Shown here one piece after another: positions 14,083-64,000 of a stretch of 64,000 bases of DNA (position 1 is its first letter; each line of letters starts with the position of its first letter). The stretch is taken from assembly GCA_036504735.1 (NCBI GenBank), contig DASXUQ010000014.1:31852-95851 (forward strand), written 5' to 3'. A program made the translations under genes and the position numbers. Below the pieces are notes generated by a model, which had not been told where the DNA came from, searched no databases, and saw only the letters and a list, made by a program, of their open reading frames with translations. The stretch comes from a bacterium. GTDB lineage: Bacteria; Electryoneota; RPQS01.

Positions 14083-15619
<1,537 letters not shown>

Positions 15620-15813
15620 AGCAATCTACGGTGCTACACTCTTCGGAGTTCGCACACGATAGATAAGGTCGAAACCCTGATCTCAGGTTCTACGGAACCA
15701 ACCTTTAAGATTTCTCAGACCGCACATCTTCCTTTTTGATTTTTTCCTTTTCGCCGAGCAGAGTGTCGGATCGAAAATGGCCGGCGAAAGTCGGCCATTC
15801 CCTTTCGCACGTT

Positions 15814-15889
<76 letters not shown>

Positions 15890-15957
15890 GACGATTTAGC
15901 CGAGCGCAAACTGACGCCACAGCTGGAGTCGTGGCAGAGACATCTGCCCGGATTCAC

Positions 15958-16030
15958 GGGGCGTTAGTTCAGCTGGGAGAACGCCGGCTTTGCAAGCCGG
16001 AGGTCATCGGTTCGATCCCGATACGCTCCA
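15958..16030 (+). tRNA. tRNA-Ala (UGC) in the 16S-23S spacer.
   Basis: ggggcgttagttcagctgggagaacgccggctTTGCAagccgg...acgctcca, with the G3:U70 identity pair. Confidence 0.9.
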
Positions 16031-16399
16031 CATCGTGAGCGTATTTCTTTCTGATCGAAAAGGATAGTTGCCGTTGTCGTAATGGGCGGCGGTATGATGC
16101 ACGCAGTGATCTTTCTTAGATGATTTTTCGCAGCCGGTCGCAGGACCGGTCGTGACGAATAGACGATTATCCACTGATGTCGCCCTGGCGGCAACCCAGT
16201 GAGGCCGATTATCGGCTTGATCTTTGACAATTGGAAACAGCAACGTTATTCGACGAGGATAACGTTGCGTACGAGATTCTCGAGAAAACCAACGAGGTCT
16301 AATATCGACCTCGCTAAAAAATAGATATTGCTCAGTAATGAGCTGAGAACGAAAGCTGCTTGGGACAATTTGTCTATCTGTAAAGCAGAATAGTTTTTC

Positions 16400-19330
<2,931 letters not shown>

Positions 19331-19531
19331 GATTTTTAATTCTCTTTAAAGATGGTCAAGTTGTCCCCAGCGGCTTTCGAAAATGGGTTTTTACTTCGTA
19401 CGCAAGAGCTTGTCTTTTGCTGTTTCCAATTGTTGAGTTTCTGCGGCTGATGCGGAAGAGTCCCAAGCCCCTCACGGGTGCTTCACCTTCCCAGCCGCAT
19501 TGCTTTGAGCCGCCTGTGGCGGCCAACGGCT

Positions 19532-19648
<117 letters not shown>

Positions 19649-19660
19649 AATTTTCTTTCA

Positions 19661-47101: not shown

Positions 47102-47281
47102 ATGCTGTTTCGTGCGCTGCTCGTCATGTTGCTCCTGTACCTGATCGCGCGCTACGCCTCCAAAGTGCTGCGCCCGCGCGATCCCCAGCGGCAGGTGAAA
47201 GGCAATCCCCGCAATCGCGGCGGAGCGATCGACCAGGGCCGGATTCAGGACGCAACTTTTAAGGACCTCCCTGACAAATGA
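47102..47281 (+). CDS. Small (59 aa) single-TM membrane protein. Not in the ORF track because it falls below the 60-aa cut-off.
   Basis: ATG 2 nt after the dNK stop. MLFRALLVMLLLYLIARYASKVLRPRDPQRQVKG... The stop overlaps the ridA start as ATGA. Confidence 0.5.
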   Translation: MLFRALLVMLLLYLIARYASKVLRPRDPQRQVKGNPRNRGGAIDQGRIQDATFKDLPDK

Positions 47282-47664
47282 CACGTGATATCGTCTCGAC
47301 CACTCAGGCGCCGCAGGCCATCGGGCCCTATAGTCAGGCCGTACGTTTTGCCGGCTCCATCGTCTCCACCTCCGGGCAGATTCCCCTCGATCCGGCCACA
47401 GGCCAGGTTGTCGGCGCCACCACGGCGGAGCAGACCGAGCAGGTGCTGAAGAATCTTTCCGCGGTGCTCGAAGCTGGCGGCGCATCGCTGGCCTCCGTCA
47501 TCAAGACCACCGTCTTTCTGAAGAACATGGGCGATTTCGCCGAGATGAATGCGGTCTACGGCCGCTATTTTCCCAAGGACCCGCCCGCCAGAAGCGCGGT
47601 GGAAGTGGCGCGTCTTCCCAAAGACGTGCTCGTGGAAATCGAATGCCTCGCCCTCGTCATCTGA
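47278..47664 (+). CDS. ridA: RidA/YjgF-family reactive-intermediate deaminase.
   Basis: 128 aa. QAPQAIGPYSQAV...PARSAVEVARLPKDVLVEIE. Confidence 0.85.
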   Translation: MTRDIVSTTQAPQAIGPYSQAVRFAGSIVSTSGQIPLDPATGQVVGATTAEQTEQVLKNLSAVLEAGGASLASVIKTTVFLKNMGDFAEMNAVYGRYFPKDPPARSAVEVARLPKDVLVEIECLALVI

Positions 47665-48197
47665 AGGCGTTGCTCTTTGCTCTTGGCTTGGTGCTGATGG
47701 CCTCGCTGGCTTCCGCCGCCGATTCCACGCGCACCGTCATGCCGCTGCTCTCCGGGCGGCCGCAGAAGAGCACCACCGCTGCCGTCTTCATGTCCATGGC
47801 GGTGCCTGGCCTCGGACAGGCCTACACGCACAACTACATTAAGGCCGCCGCCGCGGTCGCCATCGAAGGCGCTCTCGGTTGGGCCATTTCCTTCAACAAC
47901 GACCAGTACCACGGCTACCGGCGGGCCAATCAGGTGGCCCAGCAGAATCTTGCCGCGGCCTATGCCGAAAACCGCCCGGACACGCTGGTTTACCGGAACC
48001 TGATTGACACGTTCTATGGACCCCGCGAGCGCTTCTTCAAAAACCAGCGCAATCGCAATATCTGGTGGCTGGCGGGAACCGTTATTCTCTCGATGGGAGA
48101 TGCCTATGTGGATGCCCACATGTACGGGCTCGACTTCTCCCCTGACATCACATTCAAGGGCGGAACGGTGGGGCTCTCCGTCGCCTGTAAATTCTAA
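47643..48197 (+). CDS. Hypothetical exported protein (DUF5683-like PGLGQxY motif).
   Basis: Signal peptide. AVPGLGQAYTHNYIKA motif. No catalytic signature. Confidence 0.5.
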   Translation: MPRPRHLKALLFALGLVLMASLASAADSTRTVMPLLSGRPQKSTTAAVFMSMAVPGLGQAYTHNYIKAAAAVAIEGALGWAISFNNDQYHGYRRANQVAQQNLAAAYAENRPDTLVYRNLIDTFYGPRERFFKNQRNRNIWWLAGTVILSMGDAYVDAHMYGLDFSPDITFKGGTVGLSVACKF

Positions 48198-48211: not shown

Positions 48212-49111
48212 ATGAGTCTATTTGATCGCATTGTCGTGGCCTCCATTCCGATGATCCCTAAATTCGTGGTCGGGAAAGTGGCCGCACCGTACGTCGCGGG
48301 CGAATCTCTCGAGGACGGTCTGCGCACCGCCCGCGCGCTGAACAGCAAGGGTATCATGGCAACGATGGACGTGCTCGGCGAGTTCGTCCATGAAAAAGAC
48401 AAGGCCGAAGCAAGCGTCAAACAATATCTCGATTTGATCGCCGGCATCGCGCGCGATAAGCTCGACGCCAACATTTCCGTCAAGCTGACGGCGATGGGAC
48501 TGGATATCGATCCGCAGTATGTGCGGCAGAACGTGCGCAAGATCATGTCCGCCGCCTCCGGGCACGGCATGTTCGTGCGCATCGACATGGAAGACTCGCC
48601 CCGCACGGATGAGACCATCAGAATCTACCGCGAGATGCGCCAGGAATCCCGCTGCGGCCTCGTGGTGCAGGCCTATCTCAAGCGCACCTCCGACGACGTG
48701 CGCAAGCTCTGCGAGGAAGGCCCGTCCAATTTCCGCCTCTGCAAGGGCATCTATGTCGAGCCCGAAGCCATCGCCTATAAGGGCAAGCAGGAAATCCGCG
48801 ACAACTTCATGCTCCTGCTCGACCAGATGTTCACCGCCGGCGCCTACGTGGGCATCGCCACCCATGATGAGTACCTGACCAAGGCCGCCGAGGAGCTGAT
48901 CAAAAAGCACAAGCTGACCCGCGACAAGTACGAATTCCAGATGCTGCTCGGCGTCAAACCCGACCTGCGCGATGCGCTCGTCTCCCGTGGCCACCGCCTG
49001 CGCGTCTACGTTCCCTTCGGCGAGTCGTGGTACGGCTACTGCACCCGCCGTCTCAAGGAAAACCCGGCCATCGCCGGCTACGTCGCCAAGGCCATGATCG
49101 GCCTCAACTGA
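48212..49111 (+). CDS. Proline dehydrogenase (monofunctional ProDH family).
   Basis: 299 aa TIM-barrel ProDH pattern (DVLGEFV..., RIDMED, LLGV). Confidence 0.75.
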   Translation: MSLFDRIVVASIPMIPKFVVGKVAAPYVAGESLEDGLRTARALNSKGIMATMDVLGEFVHEKDKAEASVKQYLDLIAGIARDKLDANISVKLTAMGLDIDPQYVRQNVRKIMSAASGHGMFVRIDMEDSPRTDETIRIYREMRQESRCGLVVQAYLKRTSDDVRKLCEEGPSNFRLCKGIYVEPEAIAYKGKQEIRDNFMLLLDQMFTAGAYVGIATHDEYLTKAAEELIKKHKLTRDKYEFQMLLGVKPDLRDALVSRGHRLRVYVPFGESWYGYCTRRLKENPAIAGYVAKAMIGLN

Positions 49112-49178
49112 GATATTCCCCTTTTCATACGGGTCACTTTGTCAGTCTGTCGAAGTGACCCTCTCTCTGAGCGCGCCT

Positions 49179-49997
49179 ATGAAACTCCCCGATCATCTCG
49201 TCAACGCCTTTGTAAACGGCGATTGCTTTCTGAAGATGGCGGAACTGCCGGAGGAATGCGTGGATCTCGTGCTCACCGATCCGCCATATGGAATCGACTA
49301 TCAGTCCAACCGCCGCGTCGCTCGCGAGAAACTTCCCAAGTTTGCCAACGACATCGACCTGAGCTGGGTAGACGATTGGGTAGATCAGGTGCACCGCGTG
49401 CTGAAAGATGACCGCCACTTCTACTGCTTCACGCGCTTCGACATGTACCCGGTCTTCTTCAATTCCATCAGCCGCCGCTTTAAGGTGAAGAACTGCCTCA
49501 TCTGGGTGAAGAACAATCACGGCAGCGGCGACCTCAACGGCTCGTTTGCTCCCCAGTGCGAGATGATCATCTTCGCCGTCAAGGGCAAACGCGATCTCAA
49601 CGGTACCCGCGAAGCCGATGTCCTGCACTGCGACAATGTGCCTTCCGCGCACCGCCATCACGCCACGCAAAAGCCCGTCGAACTCCTGCGGCAATTGATC
49701 GAGAAGAGCACCGAGCCCGGCGAAATCGTGCTCGATCCTTTTGGCGGCGTGGGCAGCACGGGCCTCGCCTGTTTGGACGTTCATCGTCCCCACGGCGATC
49801 ATCAGGAACGCGGTTATCTGCTGTTCGAACTCAATCCGAATTTCGTGGAGAAAGGCCGCCACGGAGGATTGGGAAAGCAGGAGACCTTGATTCATGTCGA
49901 AAAGCAGGCGCGCCACGATCCTCCCAAGCAGCGCCCCGCCCTCCGCACCAATCGCGTCCGTGCCCGCAAAGATCAAACCATCCCGCTTCCTTTCTGA
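49179..49997 (+). CDS. DNA methyltransferase, beta-class (N6-adenine or N4-cytosine). Apparently an orphan.
   Basis: Motif IV TDPPYG precedes motif I DPFGGVGST. No restriction endonuclease or specificity gene is adjacent. Confidence 0.75.
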   Translation: MKLPDHLVNAFVNGDCFLKMAELPEECVDLVLTDPPYGIDYQSNRRVAREKLPKFANDIDLSWVDDWVDQVHRVLKDDRHFYCFTRFDMYPVFFNSISRRFKVKNCLIWVKNNHGSGDLNGSFAPQCEMIIFAVKGKRDLNGTREADVLHCDNVPSAHRHHATQKPVELLRQLIEKSTEPGEIVLDPFGGVGSTGLACLDVHRPHGDHQERGYLLFELNPNFVEKGRHGGLGKQETLIHVEKQARHDPPKQRPALRTNRVRARKDQTIPLPF

Positions 49998-50021
49998 AGC
50001 GATAGAGTTTGTGGAATACGC

Positions 50022-50108
50022 GAACAGCCCGCTCATCGAGCGGGCTGTTCTGTGTTATGCAGACACGGCAAAGCCGTGTCGTCGGAGGGGCGGATCTTAG
50101 ATCCGCCC
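50022..50108. terminator. Cluster of three stem-loops between the convergent MTase and kbl genes.
   Basis: gaacagcccgct/agcgggctgttc (12 bp). gacacggc/gccgtgtc (8 bp). gggcggatc/gatccgccc (9 bp). Confidence 0.6.
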
Positions 50109-50127
50109 GCCTTATATACAAATCTCC

Positions 50128-51315
50128 CTACTTCACCACTCCCATTTCCCGTCCTACCTTGGCAAACGCCGCTATCGCGCGGTCCAGATGCTCCATCTCG
50201 TGTGCGGCGGAAATCTGCACACGGATCCGCGCCTGGCCCTGCGGCACAACGGGGAAGAAGAAGCCGATGACATAAATCCCTTCATTCAGCAGCCGCGACG
50301 CCATCTCCTGTGCCACCGTTGCTTCATACAGCATAATCGGCACGATGGGATGCGTTCCGGGGCGAACCTGAAATCCCGCCTGGGTAATCCCTTCGCGGAA
50401 ATACATCGTGTTGCGCTCCAGCTTGTCGCGCAGCGCCGTGCTGTGGGAAATCAGTTCCACCACCTTCAGCGCCGACGCGGCAATCGGCGGCGGCAGCGTA
50501 TTCGAAAAGAGATAAGGCCGCGATCTCTGCCGCAGCAGATCGATGATCTCCTGCCTGCCCGCCGCAAACCCGCCCGAAGCTCCTCCCAGCGCCTTCCCCA
50601 GCGTGGACGTAATAATGTCCACCCGTCCCATCACGCCCGCCTGCTCGTGGGTTCCGCGCCCGTTCTTGCCGATGAAACCCGTAGCGTGCGAATCATCCAC
50701 CATCACCAGCGCGTCGTACTTCTCCGCCAGGTCGCAGATCGCGGCCAGCGGCGCAATGTCGCCGTCCATTGAGAAAACGCCGTCCGTCACCACCAGGCGG
50801 AACCGCGACGTCTGACTTTCCTTCAGATGCCTTTCCAGATCCCCCATGTCCATGTGGCTCATGATGTGCCGCTTGGCCTTGGAGAGCCGGATGCCGTCGA
50901 TAATCGACGCGTGATTGAGTTCGTCCGTGATGATCGCGTCTTCCGCCTTCATCAGCGTCTCGAACACGCCGCCGTTGGCGTCAAAACAGGAGCTGTAGAG
51001 AATCGAATCGTCCATGCCCAGAAATGCCGCCGTCTTCCGCTCCAACTCGCGGTGCACTTCCTGCGTGCCGCAGATAAACCGCACGCTGCTCATGCCGTAA
51101 CCCCAGCGGTCCAGCGCCTCTTTGGCCGACGTCACCAGATCCGGATTGTCACCGAGTCCCAGATAATTGTTGGCGCAGAAATTCAGCACGTCCTGCCGCG
51201 CCACTTTGATCACCGCGCCCTGTGGCGACTCGATGATCCGTTCCTTCTTGTACAGTCCCGCGCTGCGGATCGCCGCCAGCTCGGTCTGAAGATATGTTTG
51301 GAATTTTCCGTACAT
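50128..51315 (-). CDS. kbl: Glycine C-acetyltransferase (2-amino-3-ketobutyrate CoA ligase).
   Basis: Colinear with Kbl ([47 protein letters not shown]). Confidence 0.9.
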
Positions 51316-51335
51316 GACCGTTATCTGTGTTGAAA

Positions 51336-53348
51336 TTACTGCAACCGGACGGGCAGCACCACGAACTGCAGTCCGTGGAACATCAGCCGCCGCTGCAAAC
51401 TGATCGGTGTCTCATTGTGCAGGAAGCGCGTCCAGATCGAATCCTTCCAGAACAACAATCTCGCCGCAAAGAACACGGAATTGGGAAACTCACGGCTGAC
51501 CTCCAGGCAAAGCCGCTCGATCTCCGCCAGGTAATCAATCGCCAGACTGGTGCGCGCTGTTGCCTTCAAGCCATAAGACCGCGCCAGCAGCACGTACTTC
51601 TCCGCTTCCTTGTGCACTTCCTTATCCAGCGCGGCCAGCTCGTCCGTTCCCTTGAAATGGCCCGAGTCAATCGCGCCCACCGAGACAAAAATGTATTGCT
51701 TGAACCGCGACCCGAAGAGCCGCTGCACATTCAGCAGCACGTGGATTCCCGTTCCGCTGTAACGCTCCACAAGGATCACCGCCGTAGGTTCGCCGGGATC
51801 CAGCGGCACCGGCGCCGCGTTCGCCTCGCCAAACGACAGCGTCGTCAGAATCTCATCGATCTCCGCCACCTTCGCCTGCACGCCGCGATAATGCCGCCGA
51901 ATCTGGAAGCAGAAGGTGATCAGCGCCACCGTCACGATCATGATCAGCCATGCGCCCTTCGTGAACTTGATGGAGATCATGATGACCAGCAGCATCGCGC
52001 TCACTGCAAAACCGATGGCGCAAATCGTGAACCGGCGTTTCCAATGCTCGCCGCTCTTGCGCCGCGACCACCACAGGCGGCACATGCCCAAAAGCGCCAG
52101 CGTGAACCCGACGAACACGTTAATCGCGTAAATCGCAACCAGGATGCTCAGATTTCCGCGCGAGTAGAAGATGAACATCACCGCCGCCAGTCCCATCAGC
52201 AGAATGCCGTTCTGCGTCACCAGCCGCTCCGAGAGATGGCTGAAACGGTGAGGCAGCCACGAGTCTTCGGCCATGTTGGCCAGCACGCGCGGGCCGCCGA
52301 TGAATCCGGTCTGGGCCGCCACAAACAGCAGCAGAGACGCCGAAATCAGCATCGTCCACAGCAGCATATCGCCCACGGGAAGATGCCCGATCTTCCAGTG
52401 ACCCACCATGTTATCCAGCAGCACGGCGTTGAGCGTCTTGCCTTCCACCGGCTTGACGTCGAACAGGTAATAGTTGAGCAGGATGAAACCGGCCAGGAAC
52501 GCCAGCGAGACCGCCATGTAAAGCATCGTGCGCTTGCCGGTTGCCACGCGGGGTTCCTTCAGCGAGAGCATGCCGTTGGACACGGCCTCGATTCCGGTCA
52601 GGGTACCCGCGCCCATGCTGAAGGACTGCAGCAGCCGGAAGATCACAAACAGCCAGCCGCTTTGCACCAGCACCTTGTTGGCCTGCACCGAACTATCCGC
52701 AATGTGCTGGGGAATGGCCGGGAGATGGGTGAAGAGTCCGTAGATTACCGCCGCCGAGTGCGTCACCACGAAAATCAGGAAGACCGGCAGCAGCACAATC
52801 ACCGATTCCTTGACGCCGCGCAAATTGAGCAGCACCAGCAGTCCCACCGCCACCACGGCCACGTACATGCGGAGCACCGCCCAGTGCGGCGGCAGAATAC
52901 TGAACAGCGCATCCACACCCGACACGATGGAGGTGGCAATCGTCAGCACATAGTCCACGATCAGCGCCGATCCGGCCACCACACCCGCATTGGGATGCAG
53001 CAGCTTGGATGCGACAAGATACCCTCCGCCACCCGTGGGAAACTGCTCGATAAGCTGCGTATAGCTCGCGGAGATGATCAGCACCGTCGCCGCAATCAGC
53101 AGCGCCACCGCCGGCGCGAGAAACGTCAGGCCGCCCATCGCCCGGTATGCTTCTTCCGGACCGTAGTTGGCTGACGAAATTCCGTCCGCGCCCATGCCGA
53201 CCCACGCGAAAAACGCGATCAGCGAAATATGCTGAAAGATCCGTGGATCGAACGGATTGCGTCGCTCGCCGATAAGCTTGTGACGCACCCGAACCATGAA
53301 CGGTTCAGAAGGGGCGGGGGATGTCCGTGACGACGTCGAATCGGGCAT
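51336..53348 (-). CDS. APC-superfamily amino-acid permease with a C-terminal cytoplasmic domain of about 190 aa and unknown function (paralog 1).
   Basis: 670 aa. 12-TM permease core ([10 protein letters not shown]..., [17 protein letters not shown]). Then a soluble tail ...[23 protein letters not shown]...FVVLPVRLQ. Confidence 0.75.
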
Positions 53349-53401
53349 AGGTCAGAATTGGAATTGCGCTCAGGATGACGAAGACCGGTACGGCCGGAGG
53401 A

Positions 53402-55420
53402 CTACTGAAGCCGCACCGGCAGCACCACAAACTGAAGCCCGTGAAACATCAGTCTCCGCTGGAGGCTGAACGGGGTCTCGTTATGCAAAAATCGCGTAAA
53501 GATCGTGTCCCGCCAGAACAGGAGCCGGGCCACAAAGAACACACTGTTCGGATAATCCCGGCCAACCTCAAGGCACAGCCGCTCGATTTCGTTCAAATAG
53601 TCAATCGCCATGCTTGTCCGCGCCACGGCCTTTAGCCCGAAAGAGCGCGCCAGTGTCACATAGCTTTCGGCCTGCTTCTTCACGTCCTTTTCCAGCGCGG
53701 CCAGCTCATCCGTCCCTTTGAAATGGCCCGTATCAATCGCACCCACCGACACAAAAACATATTGCTTGAAGCGTGCGCCGAACAGCCGCTGCACATTCAG
53801 CATGACATGGATGCCCGTGCCGCTGTACTTTTCCACCAGCAGCACCGCGGTCGGCTCCGCCGGATCCAGAGGCTGCGCCGTAATCGGCGCGTCTCCATAG
53901 GACAGGGAGGTCAGAATCTGGTCGATCTTCGCCACCTTGGCCTTCACCGCATGGTAATGGCGTCGAATCAGGAAACAGATGCCCACCACCGTCGCGGTCA
54001 GCACAAGGGTCAGCCAGCCGCCCTTGAAAAACTTGATCGTGATCATAATGGCCAGGAGCATGACGCAGACCACGAAGCCCACGCCGTTCACCATGAATTT
54101 TCCCAGCCATTTCTCATGCGTCTTGCGGCGGCTAAGCCACAGCTTCAGCATCCCGAGCTGCGAAAGCGAGAAGGTGATGAACACGTTGATCGCGTACAGC
54201 GTCACCAGCACCGCAATGCTCGCCTTCGAATACAGGACCAGGAGAATCGCCGCCAGCCCCATCAGCAGTATCCCGTTCTGCGTTACCAGGCGTTCGGACA
54301 GATGGCTGAACCGGTGCGGCATCCACGAATCCTGCGCCATGTTCGCCACCACTCGCGGACCGTCGATAAACCCGGTCTGCGCGGCCACGAACAACAGCAG
54401 CGCCGCCGAAATCAGCATCGTCCACAACACAAACCCGCCGATATGGAACACACCCAGCTTCCACCCGCCCGCAATTTGCGAAAACAGGACCGCGTTCAGC
54501 GTCTTGCCTTCTACCGGCTGGGTGTTGAACAGGTAATAGTTGATGAACAGCATGCCCGCCAGGAAGGCCAGGGACGCCGCCATATACGCCATCGTCCGCT
54601 TGCCCGTCGCCACGCGCGGTTCCCGCAGCACCAGCATGCCGTTGGAAACGGCCTCGATGCCGGTAAATGTTCCCGCACCCATGCTGAACGCGTTCAAGAA
54701 CACGAACAGCATCGCATAGAACCCCGTCCGGTGCAGCACCTCGTGCCCTTCGGCGGATGCCGCCGCGGCGCGCAGCGGAATATCGTGCGCATGCGTGAAC
54801 AGCCCGTAACTGACCACCGCCACGTGCGAGATGACAAAGACCAGGAAGATCGGCAGCAGCACCATCACCGATTCCTTCAGCCCCCGCAGATTCATGAACA
54901 CGAGCAGGAGAATCACCCCGATGGCGAGCAGTAACCGCGCGCTTGTCCCGAAATGGGTCGCGCCCAAACTGAACAGAAAATCCACACCGGAGACCACCGA
55001 CACGGCAATGGTCAGGACATAGTCCACCACCAGCGCCGCCCCGGAGACCACGCCCACGTTGGGATGCAGCAGCTTGGATGCCACCAGGTATCCGCCGCCG
55101 CCCGTGGGAAACTGCTCGATGATCTGCGTATAGCTGGCCGAGATGATCAGCACCGTCGCCGCAATCGCCAGCGCCAGCACCGGTGCCAGAAAGGTCAGCC
55201 CGCCCAGCGCCCGGTACGCCTCTTCCGGACCGTAGTTCGCCGACGTAATTCCGTCTGCGCCCATTCCCACCCACGCGAAGAATGCGATGAGCGAAATATG
55301 CCGGAAGATGTCCGGATCAAACGGGTTACGCCGCGCGCCAAACAGGCGGCGGCGTACCCGTGTGAAAATCGACTGCTCCGTCGGAGTAATCTGCGGCGCA
55401 GCCAAATAAACGTTAGCCAT
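53402..55420 (-). CDS. APC-superfamily amino-acid permease with the same C-terminal domain (paralog 2).
   Basis: 672 aa, about 70-75% identical to paralog 1 over its full length, tail included. Confidence 0.75.
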   Translation of the reverse strand: MANVYLAAPQITPTEQSIFTRVRRRLFGARRNPFDPDIFRHISLIAFFAWVGMGADGITSANYGPEEAYRALGGLTFLAPVLALAIAATVLIISASYTQIIEQFPTGGGGYLVASKLLHPNVGVVSGAALVVDYVLTIAVSVVSGVDFLFSLGATHFGTSARLLLAIGVILLLVFMNLRGLKESVMVLLPIFLVFVISHVAVVSYGLFTHAHDIPLRAAAASAEGHEVLHRTGFYAMLFVFLNAFSMGAGTFTGIEAVSNGMLVLREPRVATGKRTMAYMAASLAFLAGMLFINYYLFNTQPVEGKTLNAVLFSQIAGGWKLGVFHIGGFVLWTMLISAALLLFVAAQTGFIDGPRVVANMAQDSWMPHRFSHLSERLVTQNGILLMGLAAILLVLYSKASIAVLVTLYAINVFITFSLSQLGMLKLWLSRRKTHEKWLGKFMVNGVGFVVCVMLLAIMITIKFFKGGWLTLVLTATVVGICFLIRRHYHAVKAKVAKIDQILTSLSYGDAPITAQPLDPAEPTAVLLVEKYSGTGIHVMLNVQRLFGARFKQYVFVSVGAIDTGHFKGTDELAALEKDVKKQAESYVTLARSFGLKAVARTSMAIDYLNEIERLCLEVGRDYPNSVFFVARLLFWRDTIFTRFLHNETPFSLQRRLMFHGLQFVVLPVRLQ

Positions 55421-55443
55421 ATACCCGGGCCTCTGCCCGGAAA

Positions 55444-56514
55444 TTAACCCTGCTGACCGTTCGGATACAGGATCACCTTCAGGCCTTCGCCCCGAAGCTT
55501 GATCGCAAATCCTTCCTCATACTGCGCGAGGGGGAACTTATGCGTGACGATGCGCTTCGCTGTCTCGAGGAACGGTCCCTGAAGCAGCGAGAGCATCTCC
55601 ACCCATGTCGAAAAAATCTTGCGTCCCGTAATGCCGCGAATCGTCAAACCCTTGAACACGACGTCCTTCGAAAAGCTCACGGGAATTTCGCCCTTGGGCA
55701 GGCCCAGCAGCGACAGTTCGCCGCCGGTGTGCAGACAGTCGAACGCGTCGCGATAGGCCGTGGCATGGCCCGACAGCTCGAAGGCCACATCTACGCCGCG
55801 CTTGGTCGGATCCGACTTGCAGACCGCGACGAATTCCTTGCGCGCCGCCTCATCCTTCACATTAAAGACCGCATCCGCGCCTTCGCGCAGGGCTTCCTGC
55901 AGCAGCGCGTCGAATACATCGGTTACATAAATCTTGCGCGCTCCCATCAGCCGGCACAATGACACCGCCATGATGCCCATCGGGCCCGCGCCCAAAATCG
56001 CCACATCTTTGGCCGCCACGTCCACCGAACGCACGGTATGCACCGCGTTGCCGATGGCGTCCAGATACGCCGCGACTTCCATCGGCAGTTCCGGCGGCAG
56101 TTTGATGACGTTGCTGGCCGGCAGCACCACGAAATCAGCAAAGATTCCGGCGGCGTCGATTCCCCGGACCACCGTATTCAAACACCACTGCCCGTTGCCG
56201 TTGCGGCAGTTGTAACAATGACCGCAGACAATGTGCATCTCTGCCGAGACATAGTCGCCGGCCTTCAGGCCGCGCACGCTCTTGCCGACTTCCTCGATGA
56301 TCCCGCAAAACTCGTGGCCGGTGATCACGGGAAGCTTGTCTTTCATGCGGTTGATAATCTGCGCGTCCGCGCGATAGATGTCCACATCGGTCCCACAGAT
56401 CGCGGTGGCCTTAATGCGGATCAGAACCTCATCCGAATTGAGAAGTTGCGGTACGGGGGCGTCGGTCGTGTAGTTCAGGCCAACCGCCGAAGTTTGTTTC
56501 AGGATCGCTTGCAT
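55444..56514 (-). CDS. tdh: L-threonine 3-dehydrogenase (Zn-dependent MDR family).
   Basis: AICGTDVDIY, GHEFCG, CGHCYNCRNG structural-zinc motif, GAGPMGIMA Rossmann motif. Confidence 0.85.
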   Translation of the reverse strand: MQAILKQTSAVGLNYTTDAPVPQLLNSDEVLIRIKATAICGTDVDIYRADAQIINRMKDKLPVITGHEFCGIIEEVGKSVRGLKAGDYVSAEMHIVCGHCYNCRNGNGQWCLNTVVRGIDAAGIFADFVVLPASNVIKLPPELPMEVAAYLDAIGNAVHTVRSVDVAAKDVAILGAGPMGIMAVSLCRLMGARKIYVTDVFDALLQEALREGADAVFNVKDEAARKEFVAVCKSDPTKRGVDVAFELSGHATAYRDAFDCLHTGGELSLLGLPKGEIPVSFSKDVVFKGLTIRGITGRKIFSTWVEMLSLLQGPFLETAKRIVTHKFPLAQYEEGFAIKLRGEGLKVILYPNGQQG

Positions 56515-56754
56515 AGTGCTATTCCAGAAGGGGGGTGAATCAGTTGCGGAAATTTCCTAAGCCTTAAATTTACCAAATAATAACCAAATAGTCAAGGTCA
56601 TCCGCACCCTGCTGAATCTGCGTCAAACTGTCGCAAATCCCCGCCCGTACTCCGTGTTGCTTCCCGGCAGTGCCGTCTTTTCCAATCCGGCTAAAGATTA
56701 CGTACCCGGAGCCGATATTAAGTACAGGTAAAACTTTTACAGGAACTATTAAAA

Positions 56755-57186
56755 ATGGATATGGACCATTTCTCCTGCCCCAACAAGATCTGCCAGGAGT
56801 TCGGCAAATCCGGCGCAGGAAACATCGCGCTATATACGCGCTACGGGCGTAAGCAGGTCCGCTTGCTGATCTGCAACACATGCGGCAAGACCTTCAGTGA
56901 ACTGAAAGGTACACCCTTCTGGGACAGCCGCTTGGACTGGGATACCATCGAGAAGATCTACCGGACGCTGCTGGAAGGGCAGGGGATTCGTGCCACCGCC
57001 CGCCTGCACAAGCTGTCCAAGAACACCGTGAAGCGCTATTTGCGCCTGGCTAAGAAAGACTTCGGGACCGTTGAACAGTTCCTCGAGGATCGCGGCGTGC
57101 TGATGGGTAACACGGCGCAGCTTCGCGACCTTGTGGACACTCACATCAGCCGCAGCAACGGCCACGTTCACTGGGAAGCCTCCTAA
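56755..57186 (+). mobile_element. IS1/InsA-like (or IS1595-like) zinc-ribbon plus HTH ORF. A solo transposase N-terminal module with no catalytic ORF.
   Basis: CPNKIC...RYGRKQVRLLICNTCGKTFS zinc ribbon, followed by GQGIRATARLHKLSKNTVKRYL HTH (InsA pattern). The next feature downstream is tRNA-Pro. Confidence 0.5.
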
Positions 57187-57296
57187 GACTTAGTTCCATC
57201 ACTTTTCTGTCCCAAACCCTGCCCCCAAAGCAGGGTTTGGCTTTTGTCCTGCCTTGACTCATGTTACAAGGAATGCGTATTTTAGGCTCTTCCTTT

Positions 57297-57372
<76 letters not shown>

Positions 57373-57377
57373 TTGAT

Positions 57378-57406
57378 AAAACAGGAGTTTAGGCTCCTGT
57401 TTTTGC
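57378..57406 (+). terminator. Rho-independent terminator after tRNA-Pro.
   Basis: aaacaggag / ctcctgttt stem, followed by a T-run. Confidence 0.7.
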
Positions 57407-58061
57407 TTTGTCCCTTTATCACCTTGACCGCTGCCGAGCGCCGGGTGCTCCTCAATAGCAGTAACCTGTCTTCAGGGCCGTATTTCTACCGCCTGCAAAT
57501 CCCGATCTTCTTCCAGACCCGCAAAATGCTGCTGGTCCGATAATCTCGCTACAGAGCGCGCCTGAAGGCGAGGACTTCGCGAGGTTCTATGCCTCTGCGA
57601 ATTTAGATCCCCGTCGGCCCCTTCCTGCAGAGGGACAGCACCGGACAGCATTGCTCCCAGCCGCTGACTGAAGAAAACATAGCATAACATATTGTAATAT
57701 TAATATGTAACAATGTGATGTGGATTGAAGGGGATAGTTATCATAGTTGCAATGTGCGCAAAGTCTTGCACACATTCCATAATTGGTCTGATTATCATCA
57801 GCGACAGACATTCTTGGTGTGATCTGCGGCGCATAGAAGATAAATATTGACAGAGACCGATAGGCTGCTATATTATATGTCCAGTAGCACCAGTGGCGAG
57901 CATCGGCGATTTCTAATGATAAGGCTTCGCGTTATGCAGATTCGGATGTACGATGCATCAGGCGGCCGTTAGCTGAACCTAAGCTGCGGGAAAACTTTGG
58001 CGGCGACCGACACGCCGATGAATTGACATGTGGATAAGGAAATCGTGCGGAGGAAGAGACT

Positions 58062-59579
58062 GTGTCCTGTAAGCTTTGTATGGTAATCGTGAAGGCTCTT
58101 CGGAATACTATCCCCAAGTGGGGGCTTCATATATGCCTGCTTGTCAGCGCGGCTTCAGCACAGCCTCCGTCCGTAGTTTGGACGTGGGAACTGTCGGGAC
58201 CTGATGATTATCAGGCATTCGCTGCCGTCGACGTTGACTCTGGAGCGATCGTATTTGCTGGGAGCCGCTCTGCGACGCTTCACGGAGACCGTCAGGTAAT
58301 GATCGGCAAAGTCACCACAAGCGGCGATAGCGCGTGGGTACGGTCTATTGAATCTCTGACCCAAGCTGAGGCGTCCGCTGTCATCAGGTCCTCCGATGGA
58401 TCTCTGATTCTCTGCGGCAGCCGCTTGGATAGCGCGGACAACGGAAACCCTGACGAGTTCATCTGTCAATCTGGCGGCGACGGAGAATTCCGATGGGCAA
58501 CGACGGTGGGTGGACCACAACCAGAAGAGGCGAGATCCATTGCCGCCACTCAGGATGGCGGATACGTAACGTGTGGGCGGCAAATACTTGGGGGATCCGC
58601 CGCGGGACCCAGCATGTATGTGGTGAAAACAGATTCCGTTGGCGACACAACGTGGTCACGCACATATCGCGCGTCTTTGTTGTCGATATCTGAAGGTACC
58701 AGCGTAATTGCGGTGCGAGAGGGCGGATTCGTGGCATTTGGGTTTTCGACACCGGGTAATTTCGACTCGCGCGACTTCTACCTTGTACGACTCACCGAGG
58801 ACGGAGACACGCTGTGGACTCGTACCTACGGTGGATCTGATGTACCGGACGAATCAGCAGCGATTTCGGAGACGGAAGACGGCGGATTCGTCTTAGTGGG
58901 AAATACCTCGGTATCCGGTAGCGCCCTCTGTGCTCCACGGGTTATCAGAATAAGTGCCAACGGAAGTGTAATTTGGGAGAGAGTGTTCTCGCGAAGTTGC
59001 TCGCGCCATCCATGGATCAGTGATGTAATTTCGCGCCCGGAAGGCGGATGGATTATCGCCGGCGGTATCGAATCTGCCTCACAGAACGGAAACGATTATT
59101 TTCTGATGGGCATTAACAACGTCGGTGACTCTTTATGGAGCGCCACATACCCCACGGGGGGGGACGGTACGATCTCCCGCATGCTACACGCTGATGGCGG
59201 TGGGTATGTATTGTGTGGCACTGTGTTGGGCGGAGGGTTCACACGGCATCATGTTCTGATCGTACGTCTCTCGAACGAGAACCTGGCACATCCGTATCCA
59301 TACATTCCTGTCGAATCGGATGTTTTAGCCGTCTATCCGAACCCGTTCAATTCGATGGCAAACGTGATGCTCACTACACGTCGCGCCGGGCTTGTTACAC
59401 TCGATATCTACGACCTCCTCGGACGGTGTGTTGCTCACTTGTATCGCGGACAGGTCGGAGCAGGAACTCATCAATTTCCGTTTTCAGGAGCACCGCTGTC
59501 ATCCGGCACGTACATCTGTCGTGCCTTGGTTCCGGGTCCGGAACATTCCATCGCTCATGCTGTGCTCCTTATCAGGTAA
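58062..59579 (+). CDS. T9SS cargo protein with repeated GG(F/Y/W)V beta-propeller-like units and a C-terminal sorting domain.
   Basis: Signal peptide. Repeats DGGYVTCG, EGGFVAFG, DGGFVLVGN, EGGWIIAGG, GGGYVLCG. C-terminus VYPNPFNSMANVML...YICRAL. Confidence 0.7.
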   Translation: MSCKLCMVIVKALRNTIPKWGLHICLLVSAASAQPPSVVWTWELSGPDDYQAFAAVDVDSGAIVFAGSRSATLHGDRQVMIGKVTTSGDSAWVRSIESLTQAEASAVIRSSDGSLILCGSRLDSADNGNPDEFICQSGGDGEFRWATTVGGPQPEEARSIAATQDGGYVTCGRQILGGSAAGPSMYVVKTDSVGDTTWSRTYRASLLSISEGTSVIAVREGGFVAFGFSTPGNFDSRDFYLVRLTEDGDTLWTRTYGGSDVPDESAAISETEDGGFVLVGNTSVSGSALCAPRVIRISANGSVIWERVFSRSCSRHPWISDVISRPEGGWIIAGGIESASQNGNDYFLMGINNVGDSLWSATYPTGGDGTISRMLHADGGGYVLCGTVLGGGFTRHHVLIVRLSNENLAHPYPYIPVESDVLAVYPNPFNSMANVMLTTRRAGLVTLDIYDLLGRCVAHLYRGQVGAGTHQFPFSGAPLSSGTYICRALVPGPEHSIAHAVLLIR

Positions 59580-59640: not shown

Positions 59641-62600
59641 ATGAGATCGACTTGTCTCGCTGTGCTGCTCGTTTTTTCAATGCTCCTCTTTCAAGTGAGC
59701 ACGTCCCGAGCCGGTGTGTTGGTCCACGAGACCCGGAGTCTGAATGGCGTATCGGTTGATTACTCGAACAGTAACCCACAAGCCCGACTTCAATCCTATC
59801 GCTCCGCACTGGCGCCAGTCTTCCCGGAACTGGATGTCCAGACGCTGGAGATTCTGGACGAATTCGAGGATCCGACCTTCGGGACCCCCACGGTGCGGCT
59901 GGTGCAGAAATACCGCGGATTGACCGTGCAGGATGCCTTCACCGTGATTGACCTGACCAAAGGACATATGGGAGCGTTTGCGACATCCAATTTCTACAAG
60001 GAAGTTAATCTGCCGGACGCCGGATTTCTGAGCCAGAAAGATGATTCGGTCGCACTGGACCGATTTGCCCGGTCATTTTGGCCGGAGATCGTCGCCGATG
60101 AGCAGGTCTGGGTACTGCCCATCGTGCTCCCTATGGAGACCAGCAATCCGAAAGACTTCCAGTTCCACTATTCCTTGAACATCGCTTCGCGCCAACACGG
60201 CCCGGCGCGCTACTACGATTGGCAGACAGGAACTTTGCTGAAAGAATCGCATCGCGACGCCCATGCGAACTTTCTCTTTGACATCTCCCACGAGGTGTTC
60301 GATCCGACCAATCATAACTACACGCTGGTGGACAACGAAGACTGTCCGGGCATTGGGCGTGCCCATTTGTCCGACATTAACGAAGAAGACTCATGGGATT
60401 GCTATGACGCTGTCAATGGGGAGTGTTCGCTCGATCTGGAGGGCATCTTCCTGCTAAACGTATGCGGGCAGACCGAAGATGTCGGAATCTGGCTTACGGG
60501 TTCGGACACCGAAAACAGCTTCGAGTACTCTGATCCGTGGCAGACGAATGCTTTTACATTTGCTGTGCCCTATGGACATGACAACACTTACTCCTGCGAC
60601 TTTGCGAGCGGATGGCATGGTGCGTGCGAAGATGATCCCGCCGCACTGTACAACCTGAACCATATCGCCCGTTTCATGCGAGACCACTTTGGGGCTCCAC
60701 GGTTTACCAATGCTGTCACAACCCAGGACCAACTGACCGGAGGATCTACAAACTCCAATGTCCCCGCCTGGGCAAGCCGTGAAGCCGGTCACAACGTCAT
60801 CATGTTTGGCTTCGATGCGAACATTGATATCCCCGGCGCGACCACGTCTAAAAGCAAAGATGTCGCGGATCACGAATACGGGCATTGCTTTGAATTCACA
60901 TGCGGATATGGCGATCACGGAGGCGGCATGGAGCATGAAGCTCTGAGGGAGGGTGTGGCCGACTTCATCTCCGCTTCCTTTGCCAACAACCATGTTATCC
61001 AAAGGGATGCCTGGTCCAACGGGCGTTATATCTACGGCTACCCCGAACGTTATTGCTATCCCAATATGGATCAACTGGAGTACGAAGAACACGAGAGAGG
61101 CATTATTATCAGCAGTGCTTTGTGGAAGATGCGGGAAAACATTGCGGCGTACGGGCAAGTGCCTCAAGGACTCGATGCCGGGACATATTCGCTTCTGCTA
61201 TTGTGCAACGCTCTGCAACATCAGCCGCCGGGCTTCGCCGGAATAGCGGAGCAGATTCTGCTGCATGACGACAACATTATGGGGGATAACGTCATTGGCA
61301 ATGGAAGCCCGAACGGTCAAGCTATCTACGATGCATTCGTCATGGAGTATATGATTCCGGTCGGGATGGGAATCAATGATCCATTCCACTTCTACCTCGG
61401 AGGCTTCAACTACTGCGATTGTGACGAGGGCTCCGCGGCTGATTGTTTTCCGCGTGTCCACAGTTGGGACGCGACGACACCATCTAGCAGTCCGAACACG
61501 GGGGGCACAGGTTTTGACATGGCCTACGTGGATAACGGAGCCGTCTATTATCGGTGGGGAATTCCCGATGCGGAACACGTGCAAGACATGTTGTCTATGC
61601 CTCATAGACTGTCCTTCGGCTATTGGGGGCAATCCGCCTCTAAAGCGAGCATATCATCCTCCGGTCAATACGTTGTCTGGGACGAGCATTATTCAGGCAT
61701 AGACTCATACACGCATTCGCATCCGTGTGGCAGACGGATTACGACAGATTGGGGTATAACGGACTTTGATCCACTGCCCTCGTTCTGGATCACTCCGGAC
61801 AATACGCATCCAGTGAACAGTGACCCTATCGCCGGTCCAATCATGATTGATCAACTGGCGACACCGACCATGTTCTTCGGCGTAGCGAATAGCGATCATC
61901 CGGTCCAGGAGAATGGGGTATGGTACCAGCGGTTCAATGCTACCGACCTAACGATGGTCGGAACTCCTATCCGTGTCAGCGGCCCGGGAACGTCCGGGGT
62001 CACGTCCTTGTCAGTCTGCGCCGGCACCGAAACGCATCCGACGGTCTGGGTTGCCTGGATCGAAGGCGGACGCGTGTATTGCACCTACGGCCGCACGGGT
62101 GCGGACGGAGCGATCACAAGCTGGCGGGCCACTCCCTACACGTTAGGCGAAGCCAACCGGAACCCGAGCAACGTGTGCGTGGCATTCTCTCCCGAAGTCG
62201 GAGGAATATTTGTCACTTGGGAAGAAGGACCGGCGGGTCACCCGGAGACTCGCAGTGTTGCCATCGAGAAGGGATACGCCGTGGGATATCCGCCGGACTA
62301 TCAGTTCGTTGCGGATGACATCCAATACCTGAATGCGTCGCCGTGGTGGTCCATACGAAATCCAGTCGTGGCGTCCACCAATTACTGGTATACCAGTTTC
62401 AATCCCGTCAACATGGCCTTTGAATGGAATATGCACCTGCCGATTCCGCAGGGGTGGTGGGGGTACCTGTGGTTGGACATCGATGTCATTTGCGGGCTTC
62501 AGCTGGCGGTCAATGAAGATCATGTTTCCGACCCGAACGATTGGGAATGGTCCATTCCGATTTTCGCCGGACTCGGCCGATCCCCCAACCTCTACTCACC

Positions 62601-64000
62601 GCACGACCGCTACGAGAGCTATGCCCTCTATACCGGAGAAAGCAATGCGGCGGGCGAGCATGTCCTGGGAGTGCAATCTTTCCAGCCCGTCTTTCCTGAA
62701 TTTGCCGCCATACAACCGGGCCGAGTGGTTATTGACCGAGACGTCGCACTTCCCACGCCTATCGGATTTGCGGACAGCGTCATCGTTGAGCCGGGAGCTA
62801 CCCTCTTTCTTATCGCGCCCGACGATGCTCCGTCAAGCGAGGTGCAATTCTTCAATCAAGGCAGAGTCATTGTGAAATCCGGTGGCACGCTCCTGATCAA
62901 AGGGGCATCACCGAGCAAGCCGGTGCGGTTGAAGTCCGGCGACGGTGATCCATGGCGAGGCATTGAGCTAGAGGGCGGGCGTCTTCGTATCGAAAATGTG
63001 CACATGTTCGATTGCGACAATTTCTGCATTTCCGCGATTAAGCCGACAGGGACCGACACTCCGGTGGATATCCAGAATTGCTACTTCGACGGCAAGCGCC
63101 TGATCAAAGGCGCGGATGCGATCCGAGTCATCGGTGATGGAAAGGGCGTGGTCCGAATTGCCAATAGCCGGATTGACTCGGTAAAGAACGCGCGCGGGCT
63201 TTATCTCTTCAATTGCGTGGCAGACTTCAGCGGCGATACTATCCAGGGCTGCGACACGTCCAACACCTACCTGAAAAACGTCACAGGCTATTTCTCGGGC
63301 TGCCTGTTCCAGGGACGGTCCAATGGTCACGGCGTGGTGTTTGATGGCAGCAATTGCACTCCCAACTTCCAGTGCTGCACCTTCAAGAATCTGGCTCCGA
63401 CCAACGCCAACGGGAACGCCCTGCTGGCTCTGCAAGGCACCGGCCCAACCTTCGGCTGGGAAGGCGCCAGCAGCGGCGTCAGCAACGTGATCAGTGACTC
63501 GGCCAGCAGCCTACTGTACTTCTACAAGGACAAGGTGATGCCGATCATTGACAACGTCAACAAGAACGGCGGTCCCGGCGGCAAGAACGACTGGTACCAG
63601 CGCAAGGGCACGGGTCGCTATTTGTACTGGGACAAGACCATGTCCGGCGATAAGTATTCGGCAGAGAATCAGTACTGGAACAACGGGGTCAAGGACGCCT
63701 ACTTCAACCCCACTCCTGCACTGACCTACTTCGCACTGGACACCACGCAGAAGAACCCGTGGGGCCTCTGCGGTAGCGGTGGCAGCAGCAGCCAGGGAAT
63801 GGCCTTCCATGGTGGCTCTGTACGCGGCTCGGCCCGCAATGGCCAGGGACTGGACAATTTCGACGACGATCTGATCATGTTCTCCAATGCCCTGACCGCC
63901 GAAGTGGAAGGCGACTATGCTGGCGCTCAGGCTTCGTTCCACAGCGTGGTTGCGGCCACCGGCGATGACCAACTGCGCTGGCAGTCGCTGACGCACATCC
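59641..64000 (+). CDS. Very large secreted protein, 5' partial in this window. It has a gluzincin (HEYGH...EALREGVAD, M4/M36-like) metallopeptidase domain followed by beta-helix-like repeats.
   Basis: GGAGG RBS, ATG at 59641, signal peptide MRSTCLAVLLVFSMLLFQVSTSRA. Manual translation shows a continuous frame of more than 1450 codons to the window end. The ORF track omits it because no stop lies inside the window. Confidence 0.7.
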   Translation, partial: MRSTCLAVLLVFSMLLFQVSTSRAGVLVHETRSLNGVSVDYSNSNPQARLQSYRSALAPVFPELDVQTLEILDEFEDPTFGTPTVRLVQKYRGLTVQDAFTVIDLTKGHMGAFATSNFYKEVNLPDAGFLSQKDDSVALDRFARSFWPEIVADEQVWVLPIVLPMETSNPKDFQFHYSLNIASRQHGPARYYDWQTGTLLKESHRDAHANFLFDISHEVFDPTNHNYTLVDNEDCPGIGRAHLSDINEEDSWDCYDAVNGECSLDLEGIFLLNVCGQTEDVGIWLTGSDTENSFEYSDPWQTNAFTFAVPYGHDNTYSCDFASGWHGACEDDPAALYNLNHIARFMRDHFGAPRFTNAVTTQDQLTGGSTNSNVPAWASREAGHNVIMFGFDANIDIPGATTSKSKDVADHEYGHCFEFTCGYGDHGGGMEHEALREGVADFISASFANNHVIQRDAWSNGRYIYGYPERYCYPNMDQLEYEEHERGIIISSALWKMRENIAAYGQVPQGLDAGTYSLLLLCNALQHQPPGFAGIAEQILLHDDNIMGDNVIGNGSPNGQAIYDAFVMEYMIPVGMGINDPFHFYLGGFNYCDCDEGSAADCFPRVHSWDATTPSSSPNTGGTGFDMAYVDNGAVYYRWGIPDAEHVQDMLSMPHRLSFGYWGQSASKASISSSGQYVVWDEHYSGIDSYTHSHPCGRRITTDWGITDFDPLPSFWITPDNTHPVNSDPIAGPIMIDQLATPTMFFGVANSDHPVQENGVWYQRFNATDLTMVGTPIRVSGPGTSGVTSLSVCAGTETHPTVWVAWIEGGRVYCTYGRTGADGAITSWRATPYTLGEANRNPSNVCVAFSPEVGGIFVTWEEGPAGHPETRSVAIEKGYAVGYPPDYQFVADDIQYLNASPWWSIRNPVVASTNYWYTSFNPVNMAFEWNMHLPIPQGWWGYLWLDIDVICGLQLAVNEDHVSDPNDWEWSIPIFAGLGRSPNLYSPHDRYESYALYTGESNAAGEHVLGVQSFQPVFPEFAAIQPGRVVIDRDVALPTPIGFADSVIVEPGATLFLIAPDDAPSSEVQFFNQGRVIVKSGGTLLIKGASPSKPVRLKSGDGDPWRGIELEGGRLRIENVHMFDCDNFCISAIKPTGTDTPVDIQNCYFDGKRLIKGADAIRVIGDGKGVVRIANSRIDSVKNARGLYLFNCVADFSGDTIQGCDTSNTYLKNVTGYFSGCLFQGRSNGHGVVFDGSNCTPNFQCCTFKNLAPTNANGNALLALQGTGPTFGWEGASSGVSNVISDSASSLLYFYKDKVMPIIDNVNKNGGPGGKNDWYQRKGTGRYLYWDKTMSGDKYSAENQYWNNGVKDAYFNPTPALTYFALDTTQKNPWGLCGSGGSSSQGMAFHGGSVRGSARNGQGLDNFDDDLIMFSNALTAEVEGDYAGAQASFHSVVAATGDDQLRWQSLTHI

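Follow-up and report, generated by a model that had tools for sequence, protein, structure and literature searches.

This analysis concerns a group of threonine-catabolic genes in a 64,000-nucleotide (nt) stretch of contig DASXUQ010000014.1, the whole of which is referred to here as the window, with coordinates counted from its first letter. On the minus strand, positions 50128-56514 are occupied by four back-to-back open reading frames (ORFs) of 356, 672, 670 and 395 amino acids (aa). The outer two, tdh and kbl, encode L-threonine 3-dehydrogenase (TDH) and 2-amino-3-ketobutyrate CoA ligase (KBL), and between them lie two tandem genes for membrane proteins, here named permA and permB (Table 1; the public protein records of the locus are HEY3296199-HEY3296203). 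The ORF listing confirms the span and order given in an earlier note on this DNA, in which two tandem permeases were described as lying between tdh and kbl on the same strand.

Table 1. Positions of the features discussed, in window coordinates unless a locus handle (L) precedes them
Feature	Position	Strand	Description
tdh	55444-56514	-	Zn-dependent MDR-type L-threonine 3-dehydrogenase, 356 aa; ADH_N + ADH_zinc_N domains
permA	53402-55420	-	most likely KimA-type (KUP-family) transporter, 672 aa; 12 predicted transmembrane (TM) helices; universal stress protein (USP)-like C-terminal domain, residues ~520-672
permB	51336-53348	-	permA paralogue, 670 aa (653 aa if the start is the second ATG, 53297)
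kbl	50128-51315	-	glycine C-acetyltransferase (2-amino-3-ketobutyrate CoA ligase), 395 aa
promoter-like element	56567..56595	-	sigma-70-like TTGACT, 17 nt, TAAATT; TG before the -10
hairpin region	49998..50127	.	three GC-rich hairpins between convergent kbl (-) and DNA methylase (+)
DNA methylase	49155-49997	+	N6/N4 type (PF01555, 2.2e-30)
rejected ORF	49134-50036	-	300 aa, antisense to the methylase
gap hairpin	55421-55443	-	CCGGGC-agag-GCCCGG, between tdh and permA
SDR-type TDH	L010:4868-5848		tdh slot of a sister subclade
SDR-type TDH	L097:3990-4970		as above
SDR-type TDH	L099:2156-3136		as above
SDR-type TDH	L101:3920-4900		as above
tandem transporters	L001:8001-12111		two A-type copies
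tdh-transporter	L009:5962-9076		kbl gone
orf143	56755..57186	+	zinc-ribbon + helix-turn-helix, IS1 InsA-like, 143 aa; divergent neighbour of tdh
hairpin	57212-57240		flagged as plus-strand terminator for orf143
tRNA-Pro (UGG)	57297-57371	+	between orf143 and the T9SS-tail protein
T9SS-tail protein	58062-59579	+	505 aa, type IX secretion system (T9SS) C-terminal sorting domain
five ORFs	60454-63435		132-237 aa
RidA	47278-47664	+
DUF5683	47643-48197	+
proline dehydrogenase (ProDH)	48212-49111	+	monofunctional
rRNA operon	14084-19649	+	16S 14084-15613, 23S 16400-19332, 5S 19533-19649
spacer tRNAs	15815-15888, 15958-16030		two, in the rRNA operon spacer

The gaps between the four genes, from tdh to kbl, measure 23, 53 and 20 nt, in keeping with the 20-55 nt of the earlier note; the middle gap becomes 104 nt if permB begins at its second ATG, as is implied by the public annotation of a 653-aa product. 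A pattern scan of the tdh-permA-permB-kbl junctions gave no convincing terminator or extra promoter-like site on that strand, and it placed a promoter-like element some 50 nt ahead of the tdh start. When the intergenic regions between tdh and its divergent neighbour, orf143, were aligned for nine genomes, this element was the sole well-conserved block in its part of the region, flanked by diverged sequence: the TTG of its -35 does not vary, nor do several further positions, and the remainder fits the consensus. We infer that the element acts as a promoter, and that the four genes are probably co-transcribed as a single operon, in which transcription would begin upstream of tdh, pass through the two transporter genes and kbl, and stop at the hairpins beyond kbl.

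These three hairpins, which had also been described in the earlier note, are real: the region has a minimum free energy of -65.3 kcal/mol, compared with -36.8 +/- 3.8 for shuffled sequences (z = -7.5). The description can be refined in two respects, in that none of the three has a U-tract on the kbl strand (the terminator scan flags the third hairpin, on the plus strand only), and that the region is shared with a convergent gene for a DNA methylase. It is likely that the three hairpins are bidirectional transcription stops. A minus-strand ORF considered as a possible fifth gene of the operon was rejected, having no Pfam match and being an antisense shadow of the methylase gene; its translation appears conserved in relatives because the methylase on the opposite strand is. 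A 6-bp GC hairpin in the tdh-permA gap, ending 4 nt ahead of the ATG, is not kept in relatives (for example L006, where both genes abut). A permissive Rfam search of positions 49500-58200 for leader RNAs, including riboswitches (c-di-AMP/ydaO, glycine or T-box), yielded only tRNA-Pro and, at E 0.42, an RsmY match attributable to chance.

The assignments of the two enzymes hold. The five best PDB relatives of the tdh product are all TDHs (3.9e-79, for 5kia, to 1e-67), the best ordinary alcohol dehydrogenase coming at 1.8e-33. Its best family is L-threonine 3-dehydrogenase (NF003808, 361.6 bits), for which it falls just under the cut-off of 380, and it likewise fails the other curated equivalog model (TIGR00692, 342.3 against 458). 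The translation holds C40, H67 and E68, which we take to be the catalytic Zn residues, and a four-Cys lobe (C97, C100, C103, C111) that presumably supplies the structural Zn ligands. In public annotation it appears both as "alcohol dehydrogenase catalytic domain-containing protein" (NCBI) and as threonine 3-dehydrogenase (JGI). The kbl product passes its equivalog models (NF005394, 641.4 bits against 460; TIGR01822, 638.5 against 493). TDH would oxidise L-threonine to 2-amino-3-ketobutyrate, which KBL would then cleave with CoA to give glycine and acetyl-CoA.

Relationship of the inner genes to KimA

The products of permA and permB match the Pfam family AA_permease_2 weakly (72-76 bits, with a gathering cut-off of 27). 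In public records, PermA (HEY3296201.1) is named "APC family permease", and its named close homologues are listed as "APC family permease / amino acid transporter"; homologues at E <= 1e-10 number at least 8000. Such labels are uninformative about substrate, because KimA, the K+/H+ symporter of Bacillus subtilis, itself carries an APC label, "APC family permease" being also the name given to it by its PDB depositors. Neither PermA nor PermB passes any NCBIfam amino-acid transporter model, the sole match being to an ethanolamine permease (28 bits, against a cut-off of 382).

Comparisons by sequence, profile and fold all lead to KimA. It was the only match when PermA was compared with all PDB sequences by phmmer (1.1e-59), and a profile of 38 family members matched it at 4e-82, the next match being a cationic amino-acid transporter with an E value of 0.04 (15 bits). 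With a full-length AlphaFold model of PermA, built from the 38-member family alignment (pLDDT 81, pTM 0.76), Foldseek placed three KimA entries on top, at 7.6e-28 (8b70, 641 columns) to 2e-21 and over 632-671 columns, in alignments that take in the C-terminal domain as well as the membrane domain; then came cation-chloride cotransporters (about 1e-12) and amino-acid APC transporters (about 1e-10). Modelled alone (the last 175 residues; pLDDT 85), the C-terminal domain is a five-stranded alpha/beta structure of the USP fold, with Foldseek matches to USP proteins (1.8e-4), the c-di-AMP-bound USP domain of KdpD (2.3e-4) and the cytosolic domain of KimA (9e-3).

In KimA, K+ is coordinated and gated by D36, Y43, T121, T230 and Y377, with S125 nearby; the cytoplasmic tunnel contains D117, and proton coupling is the role of E233 (PMC6994465, PMC10284832). 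The same eight residues are reported to be conserved in Caulobacter Kup, for which mutants with altered K+ affinity have been described (bioRxiv 10.1101/2023.07.05.547876). We aligned 92 sequences, 14 of them linked to tdh or kbl and 78 from unlinked homologues. The counterparts of D36, Y43, T121, S125, T230 and Y377 (D56, Y63, T137, S141, T253 and Y409 in PermA) and those of D117 and E233 (D133 and E256) are invariant in all 92, as is KimA Y118, and N237 deviates in one unlinked homologue only; PermB carries the same K+ residues as PermA. Just six columns separate the tdh/kbl-linked clade from the unlinked homologues, and none of them is a ligand, the nearest being A61 (Ser in the alternative state), so clade-specific substitutions in the pocket were rejected as a sign of a new substrate. 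Because the K+-binding, gating and proton-coupling set of KimA is invariant and the clade-specific columns include no ligand, we read PermA and PermB as most likely belonging to the KimA subfamily of the KUP family, and as K+/H+ symporters importing K+. Each would comprise a LeuT-fold membrane domain and a USP-like cytoplasmic domain (the latter dimerising in KimA), and would bring in K+ together with H+.

The earlier note had proposed, because of the Pfam-level "APC permease" label, that the two permeases were dedicated importers of threonine, serine or glycine. We now consider it improbable that a family of KimA fold was recruited to amino-acid transport and that the two proteins supply the flanking enzymes with imported threonine (or serine or glycine). 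There is an AA_permease_2 match above the gathering score, and substrate transporters are commonly encoded inside catabolic operons, an example being tdcC in the tdc operon of Escherichia coli; the slot between tdh and kbl has also been kept across the clade, even through the replacement of TDH by a non-homologous enzyme (see below). However, beyond the shared fold there is no similarity to characterised amino-acid APC transporters (0.04, compared with 4e-82 for KimA), no variation is seen in the K+ ligands, the gate residues or the proton-coupling Glu, the six clade-distinguishing positions leave the pocket without remodelling, and the same family stands alone at 82 loci in many phyla. Amino-acid transport gets no positive support from the sequence or fold of the transporters, and the earlier proposal is to that extent unsupported.

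The arrangement in related genomes

Related loci were gathered through context look-ups, a scan in which each GTDB species was represented by one genome, and a metagenome scan with permA. Among named relatives, the closest carry the labels candidate division KSB1 and Calditrichota. Wherever the transporter shares 58% identity or more with PermA (the window, L001-L007, L009-L011, L018, L089 and L095-L101), tdh, kbl or both lie alongside. The order tdh-transporter-transporter-kbl was found in four genomes (the window, L001, L003 and L004), and tdh-transporter-kbl, with a single transporter, in five (L005, L006, L007, L011 and L018); four partial contigs (L002, L089, L095 and L096) fit the tdh-transporter-kbl pattern. 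In L009, tdh and an A-type transporter (see below) have been kept and kbl is gone, the methylase gene lying about 300 nt past the transporter. Gene junctions in the relatives are mostly of 0-100 nt, and of 0-30 nt in several: in L006 the last position of tdh is 6000 and the first of the transporter gene is 6001. The metagenome scan gave eight loci, three of them from clade members and all three consistent with the pattern. Conservation in related genomes, which the earlier note had suggested checking, is therefore found for the order tdh-transporter(s)-kbl within one uncultured lineage, mostly in single-copy form.

Among more distant homologues (44-50% identical to PermA), neither tdh nor kbl lies within about 6 kb at any of 82 loci; these belong to Acidobacteriota, Deltaproteobacteria, Binatia, Elusimicrobiota, Verrucomicrobia and others. 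Nor do the 44 immediate same-strand neighbours of such homologues share a common family (they include two cases of DUF4118 with a histidine kinase, and two OmpL-like porins). Ion transporters are often stand-alone genes, and the result for the 82 loci indicates that this family is normally stand-alone, the link with tdh and kbl being a feature of one lineage.

In one subclade of that lineage the first enzyme has been exchanged. The tdh slot of L010 contains an ORF unrelated to the window TDH, which specifies a 326-aa SDR/epimerase-type L-threonine dehydrogenase (matches to PDB TDHs go down to 7.8e-131, with 2yy7 from Flavobacterium frigidimaris at 2.5e-115 and the mouse and trypanosome enzymes at 1e-75 to 1e-86), and is followed by a KimA-like gene and then by a bona fide kbl (655 bits). 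L097-L101 share this arrangement. The presence of two unrelated TDH families in one slot is an in-place non-orthologous displacement, and since TDH was swapped while the transporter and kbl remained unmoved, the unit is apparently maintained by selection as a threonine-catabolic operon containing the transporter. This argues that a purely accidental, soon-lost insertion is the less likely; it says nothing about the transported substrate.

The same evidence bears on the idea that a K+ transporter gene landed in the operon and persists there as a passenger, harmlessly expressed from the promoter of the operon, in a syntenic block and unlinked to threonine catabolism, which we judge unlikely. The whole block downstream of kbl (methylase, ProDH, DUF5683, RidA, dNK, HPPK, FolB, DAHP synthase) is indeed syntenic across the clade, the tdh/kbl association is missing outside it, and L009 has lost kbl yet keeps tdh and the transporter. 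A mere passenger would, however, sit awkwardly with an arrangement that persists down to 58% transporter identity, that has survived in-place TDH replacement as well as a duplication after which both copies were long kept (dN/dS 0.25), and that has very tight gene junctions, of 0-30 nt in several relatives. Moreover, synteny stops directly upstream of the orf143-tdh unit, although the unit itself is retained.

PermA and PermB are 70% identical over 660 aa (the earlier note gave 70-75%), with 71% nucleotide identity and a dN/dS of about 0.25; identity is 65% in the membrane domain and 81% in the C-terminal domain. A neighbour-joining tree of clade members separates an A lineage (PermA, both L001 copies, L009, and the first copies of L004 and L003) from a B lineage (PermB, the second copies of L003 and L004, and L011). 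From this tree the duplication appears to be older than the split of the genomes that carry A and B, L009 and L011 each having retained one type, and both copies appear to have been long retained under purifying selection. In L001 the two tandem copies are both A-type and are 79% identical (the A-B pairs of the window, L003 and L004 are 63-69% identical), which suggests re-duplication or gene conversion. Fixed differences between A and B are confined to ten positions, one of which, residue 252 (Phe in the A lineage, Leu in B and KimA), adjoins the K+ ligand T253 and may tune K+ affinity. KimA is a domain-swapped homodimer joined via its cytosolic domains (PMC6994465). It is plausible, if purely conjectural, that PermA and PermB form heterodimers, or that the two copies differ in affinity.

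Probable potassium import and threonine catabolism

We think it fairly probable, with real reservations, that KimA-type K+ importers are co-transcribed in this lineage with the conversion of threonine to glycine and acetyl-CoA, in what is in the window a four-gene operon. An ancestor of the KSB1/Calditrichota-labelled lineage would have gained one KimA-like transporter gene between tdh and kbl; the gene would later have been duplicated in a subclade, and both copies kept by purifying selection. Coupling at the physiological level might then consist in the co-expression of K+ uptake with amino-acid catabolism, or in the supply of K+ to a K+-activated enzyme step.

Several considerations weigh against this interpretation. 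Identity between PermA and KimA is 24-25% over the structural alignment, and the C-terminal domain of PermA is unalignable to KimA by sequence. A c-di-AMP contact of KimA, R337, aligns to H369 of PermA, with R370 adjacent. The order of genes by itself is weak evidence of functional coupling, because of the wider synteny downstream of kbl, and no consistent K+-related neighbours accompany the transporter outside the clade (DUF4118 plus histidine kinase in 2/44). Transporters embedded in catabolic operons usually carry the substrate of the pathway, the neighbourhood is otherwise one of amino-acid catabolism (ProDH, RidA), and we know of no physiology in which K+ import is needed alongside threonine catabolism. 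The literature searched contained no link of tdh or kbl with permeases or K+ transporters. Separately, with regard to c-di-AMP, the cytosolic contact residues of KimA (P479, H579, N580, Q581, S582) could not be aligned by sequence to PermA, and the Rfam scan of 49500-58200 showed no c-di-AMP (ydaO-type) riboswitch upstream of the transporter genes.

A real mechanistic coupling could take either of two forms: KimA-fold members in this lineage might have turned into carriers of threonine, glycine or an aminoketone even though their K+ site is intact, or K+/H+ symport might be integral to threonine catabolism, through a K+-activated TDH, through the balancing of charge or pH, or through a heterodimer of the paralogues formed via their highly conserved USP-like domains. 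We would assign such coupling a low probability. Lower still, to the point of being very improbable, is the specific proposal that K+ is imported because a step of the pathway is K+-activated, the operon supplying its own activator. The idea is prompted by the SDR-type TDH that one subclade of the lineage uses in the operon: in Trypanosoma cruzi, K+ is an allosteric activator of the SDR-type enzyme, which has almost no activity when K+ is absent, and K+ activation has also been reported for the TDH of Staphylococcus aureus (PMC11910319). The window TDH, however, is of the Zn-dependent MDR type, for which our literature search gave no report of K+ activation. In addition, cytoplasmic K+ in bacteria is normally far above the level that activates the T. 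cruzi enzyme, and a dedicated supply would therefore be unnecessary.

Returning to the interpretation that we favour, co-transcription of KimA-type importers with the threonine enzymes, its consequences are of several kinds. It would correct a likely functional mis-assignment, in which KimA-type K+ importers, whose characterised members so far come from Firmicutes, go under names such as "APC family permease / amino acid transporter". It would also give, in an uncultured lineage, a conserved operon joining K+ uptake to threonine catabolism, a link undescribed in the literature searched. The exchange of TDH families illustrates non-orthologous displacement cleanly, and suggests selection acting on the unit. 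Should the link prove functional, amino-acid catabolism would seem to depend on K+ homeostasis in a way so far unrecognised, or else the KUP fold to have a new substrate; otherwise this is an ordinary catabolic operon with an ion-transporter passenger.

Neighbouring features and known systems

The product of orf143 has weak Pfam matches to TnsD, HTH_7 and HTH_Tnp_IS1. The gene is upstream of tdh in clade loci with enough upstream sequence, except L018 (where tblastn found none). It is single-copy, its relatives being 55-88% identical over about 100 clusters and publicly named "IS1 family transposase" or "transposase-like"; distant homologues (P0216 and P0212, 59-62% identity) are in unrelated contexts and not beside tdh. 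On these comparisons the protein looks like a domesticated InsA-like DNA-binding protein, and it is possible that it regulates the tdh unit. Beyond orf143 are a strong hairpin upstream of the tRNA-Pro gene, and a gene for a protein with a T9SS sorting domain, which fits an organism of the FCB group; five further ORFs (60454-63435) had no Pfam match. On the other side of the locus, the genes for RidA, a DUF5683 protein and ProDH form a block conserved across the lineage, on the strand opposite to kbl, with a PALP-family enzyme added beside ProDH in the SDR-TDH subclade. Elsewhere, the window contains a complete rRNA operon with two tRNAs in its spacer, which could place this metagenome-assembled genome taxonomically.

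In comparison with known systems, PermA and PermB share with KimA a LeuT-fold domain of 12 TM helices followed by a cytoplasmic alpha/beta domain, top ranking by sequence, profile and fold, and the conservation of D36, Y43, D117, Y118, T121, S125, T230, E233, N237 and Y377. They differ from it in the low identity (24-25%), in a C-terminal domain that in PermA is nearer to USP proteins (1.8e-4) than to the KimA domain (9e-3), in having His at the R337 position of PermA, in lacking an upstream ydaO-type riboswitch, and in being encoded within a catabolic operon by two diverged tandem copies. The amino-acid transporters AdiC, ApcT, GkApcT, BasC and LAT1/2 likewise have the LeuT fold (Foldseek target TM-scores of about 0.7 over the membrane domain) and an AA_permease_2 match. 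Their sequence similarity to the window proteins is negligible, however (profile E >= 0.04), and they are without the C-terminal domain, while TM1 of PermA and PermB bears the KimA-type Asp and Tyr.

As to gene organization, the tdcABCDEFG operon of E. coli also has a co-oriented transporter gene inside an amino-acid degradation operon, but TdcC is of another family and is a proven threonine/serine carrier, whereas the closest characterised relative of the proteins considered here carries K+. The kbl-tdh operon of E. coli and other bacterial tdh/kbl pairs provide the same two enzyme functions from one strand and as one unit; here, by contrast, tdh opens the series and kbl closes it, with one or two transporter genes in between, and in a sister subclade TDH is of the SDR type. 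A transporter gene between tdh and kbl is described in no paper of the literature searched. The parts, then (TDH, KBL and the KimA/KUP family), are already known; what is new is the way they are combined, in a conserved order, with tandem paralogues and an exchange of TDH families.

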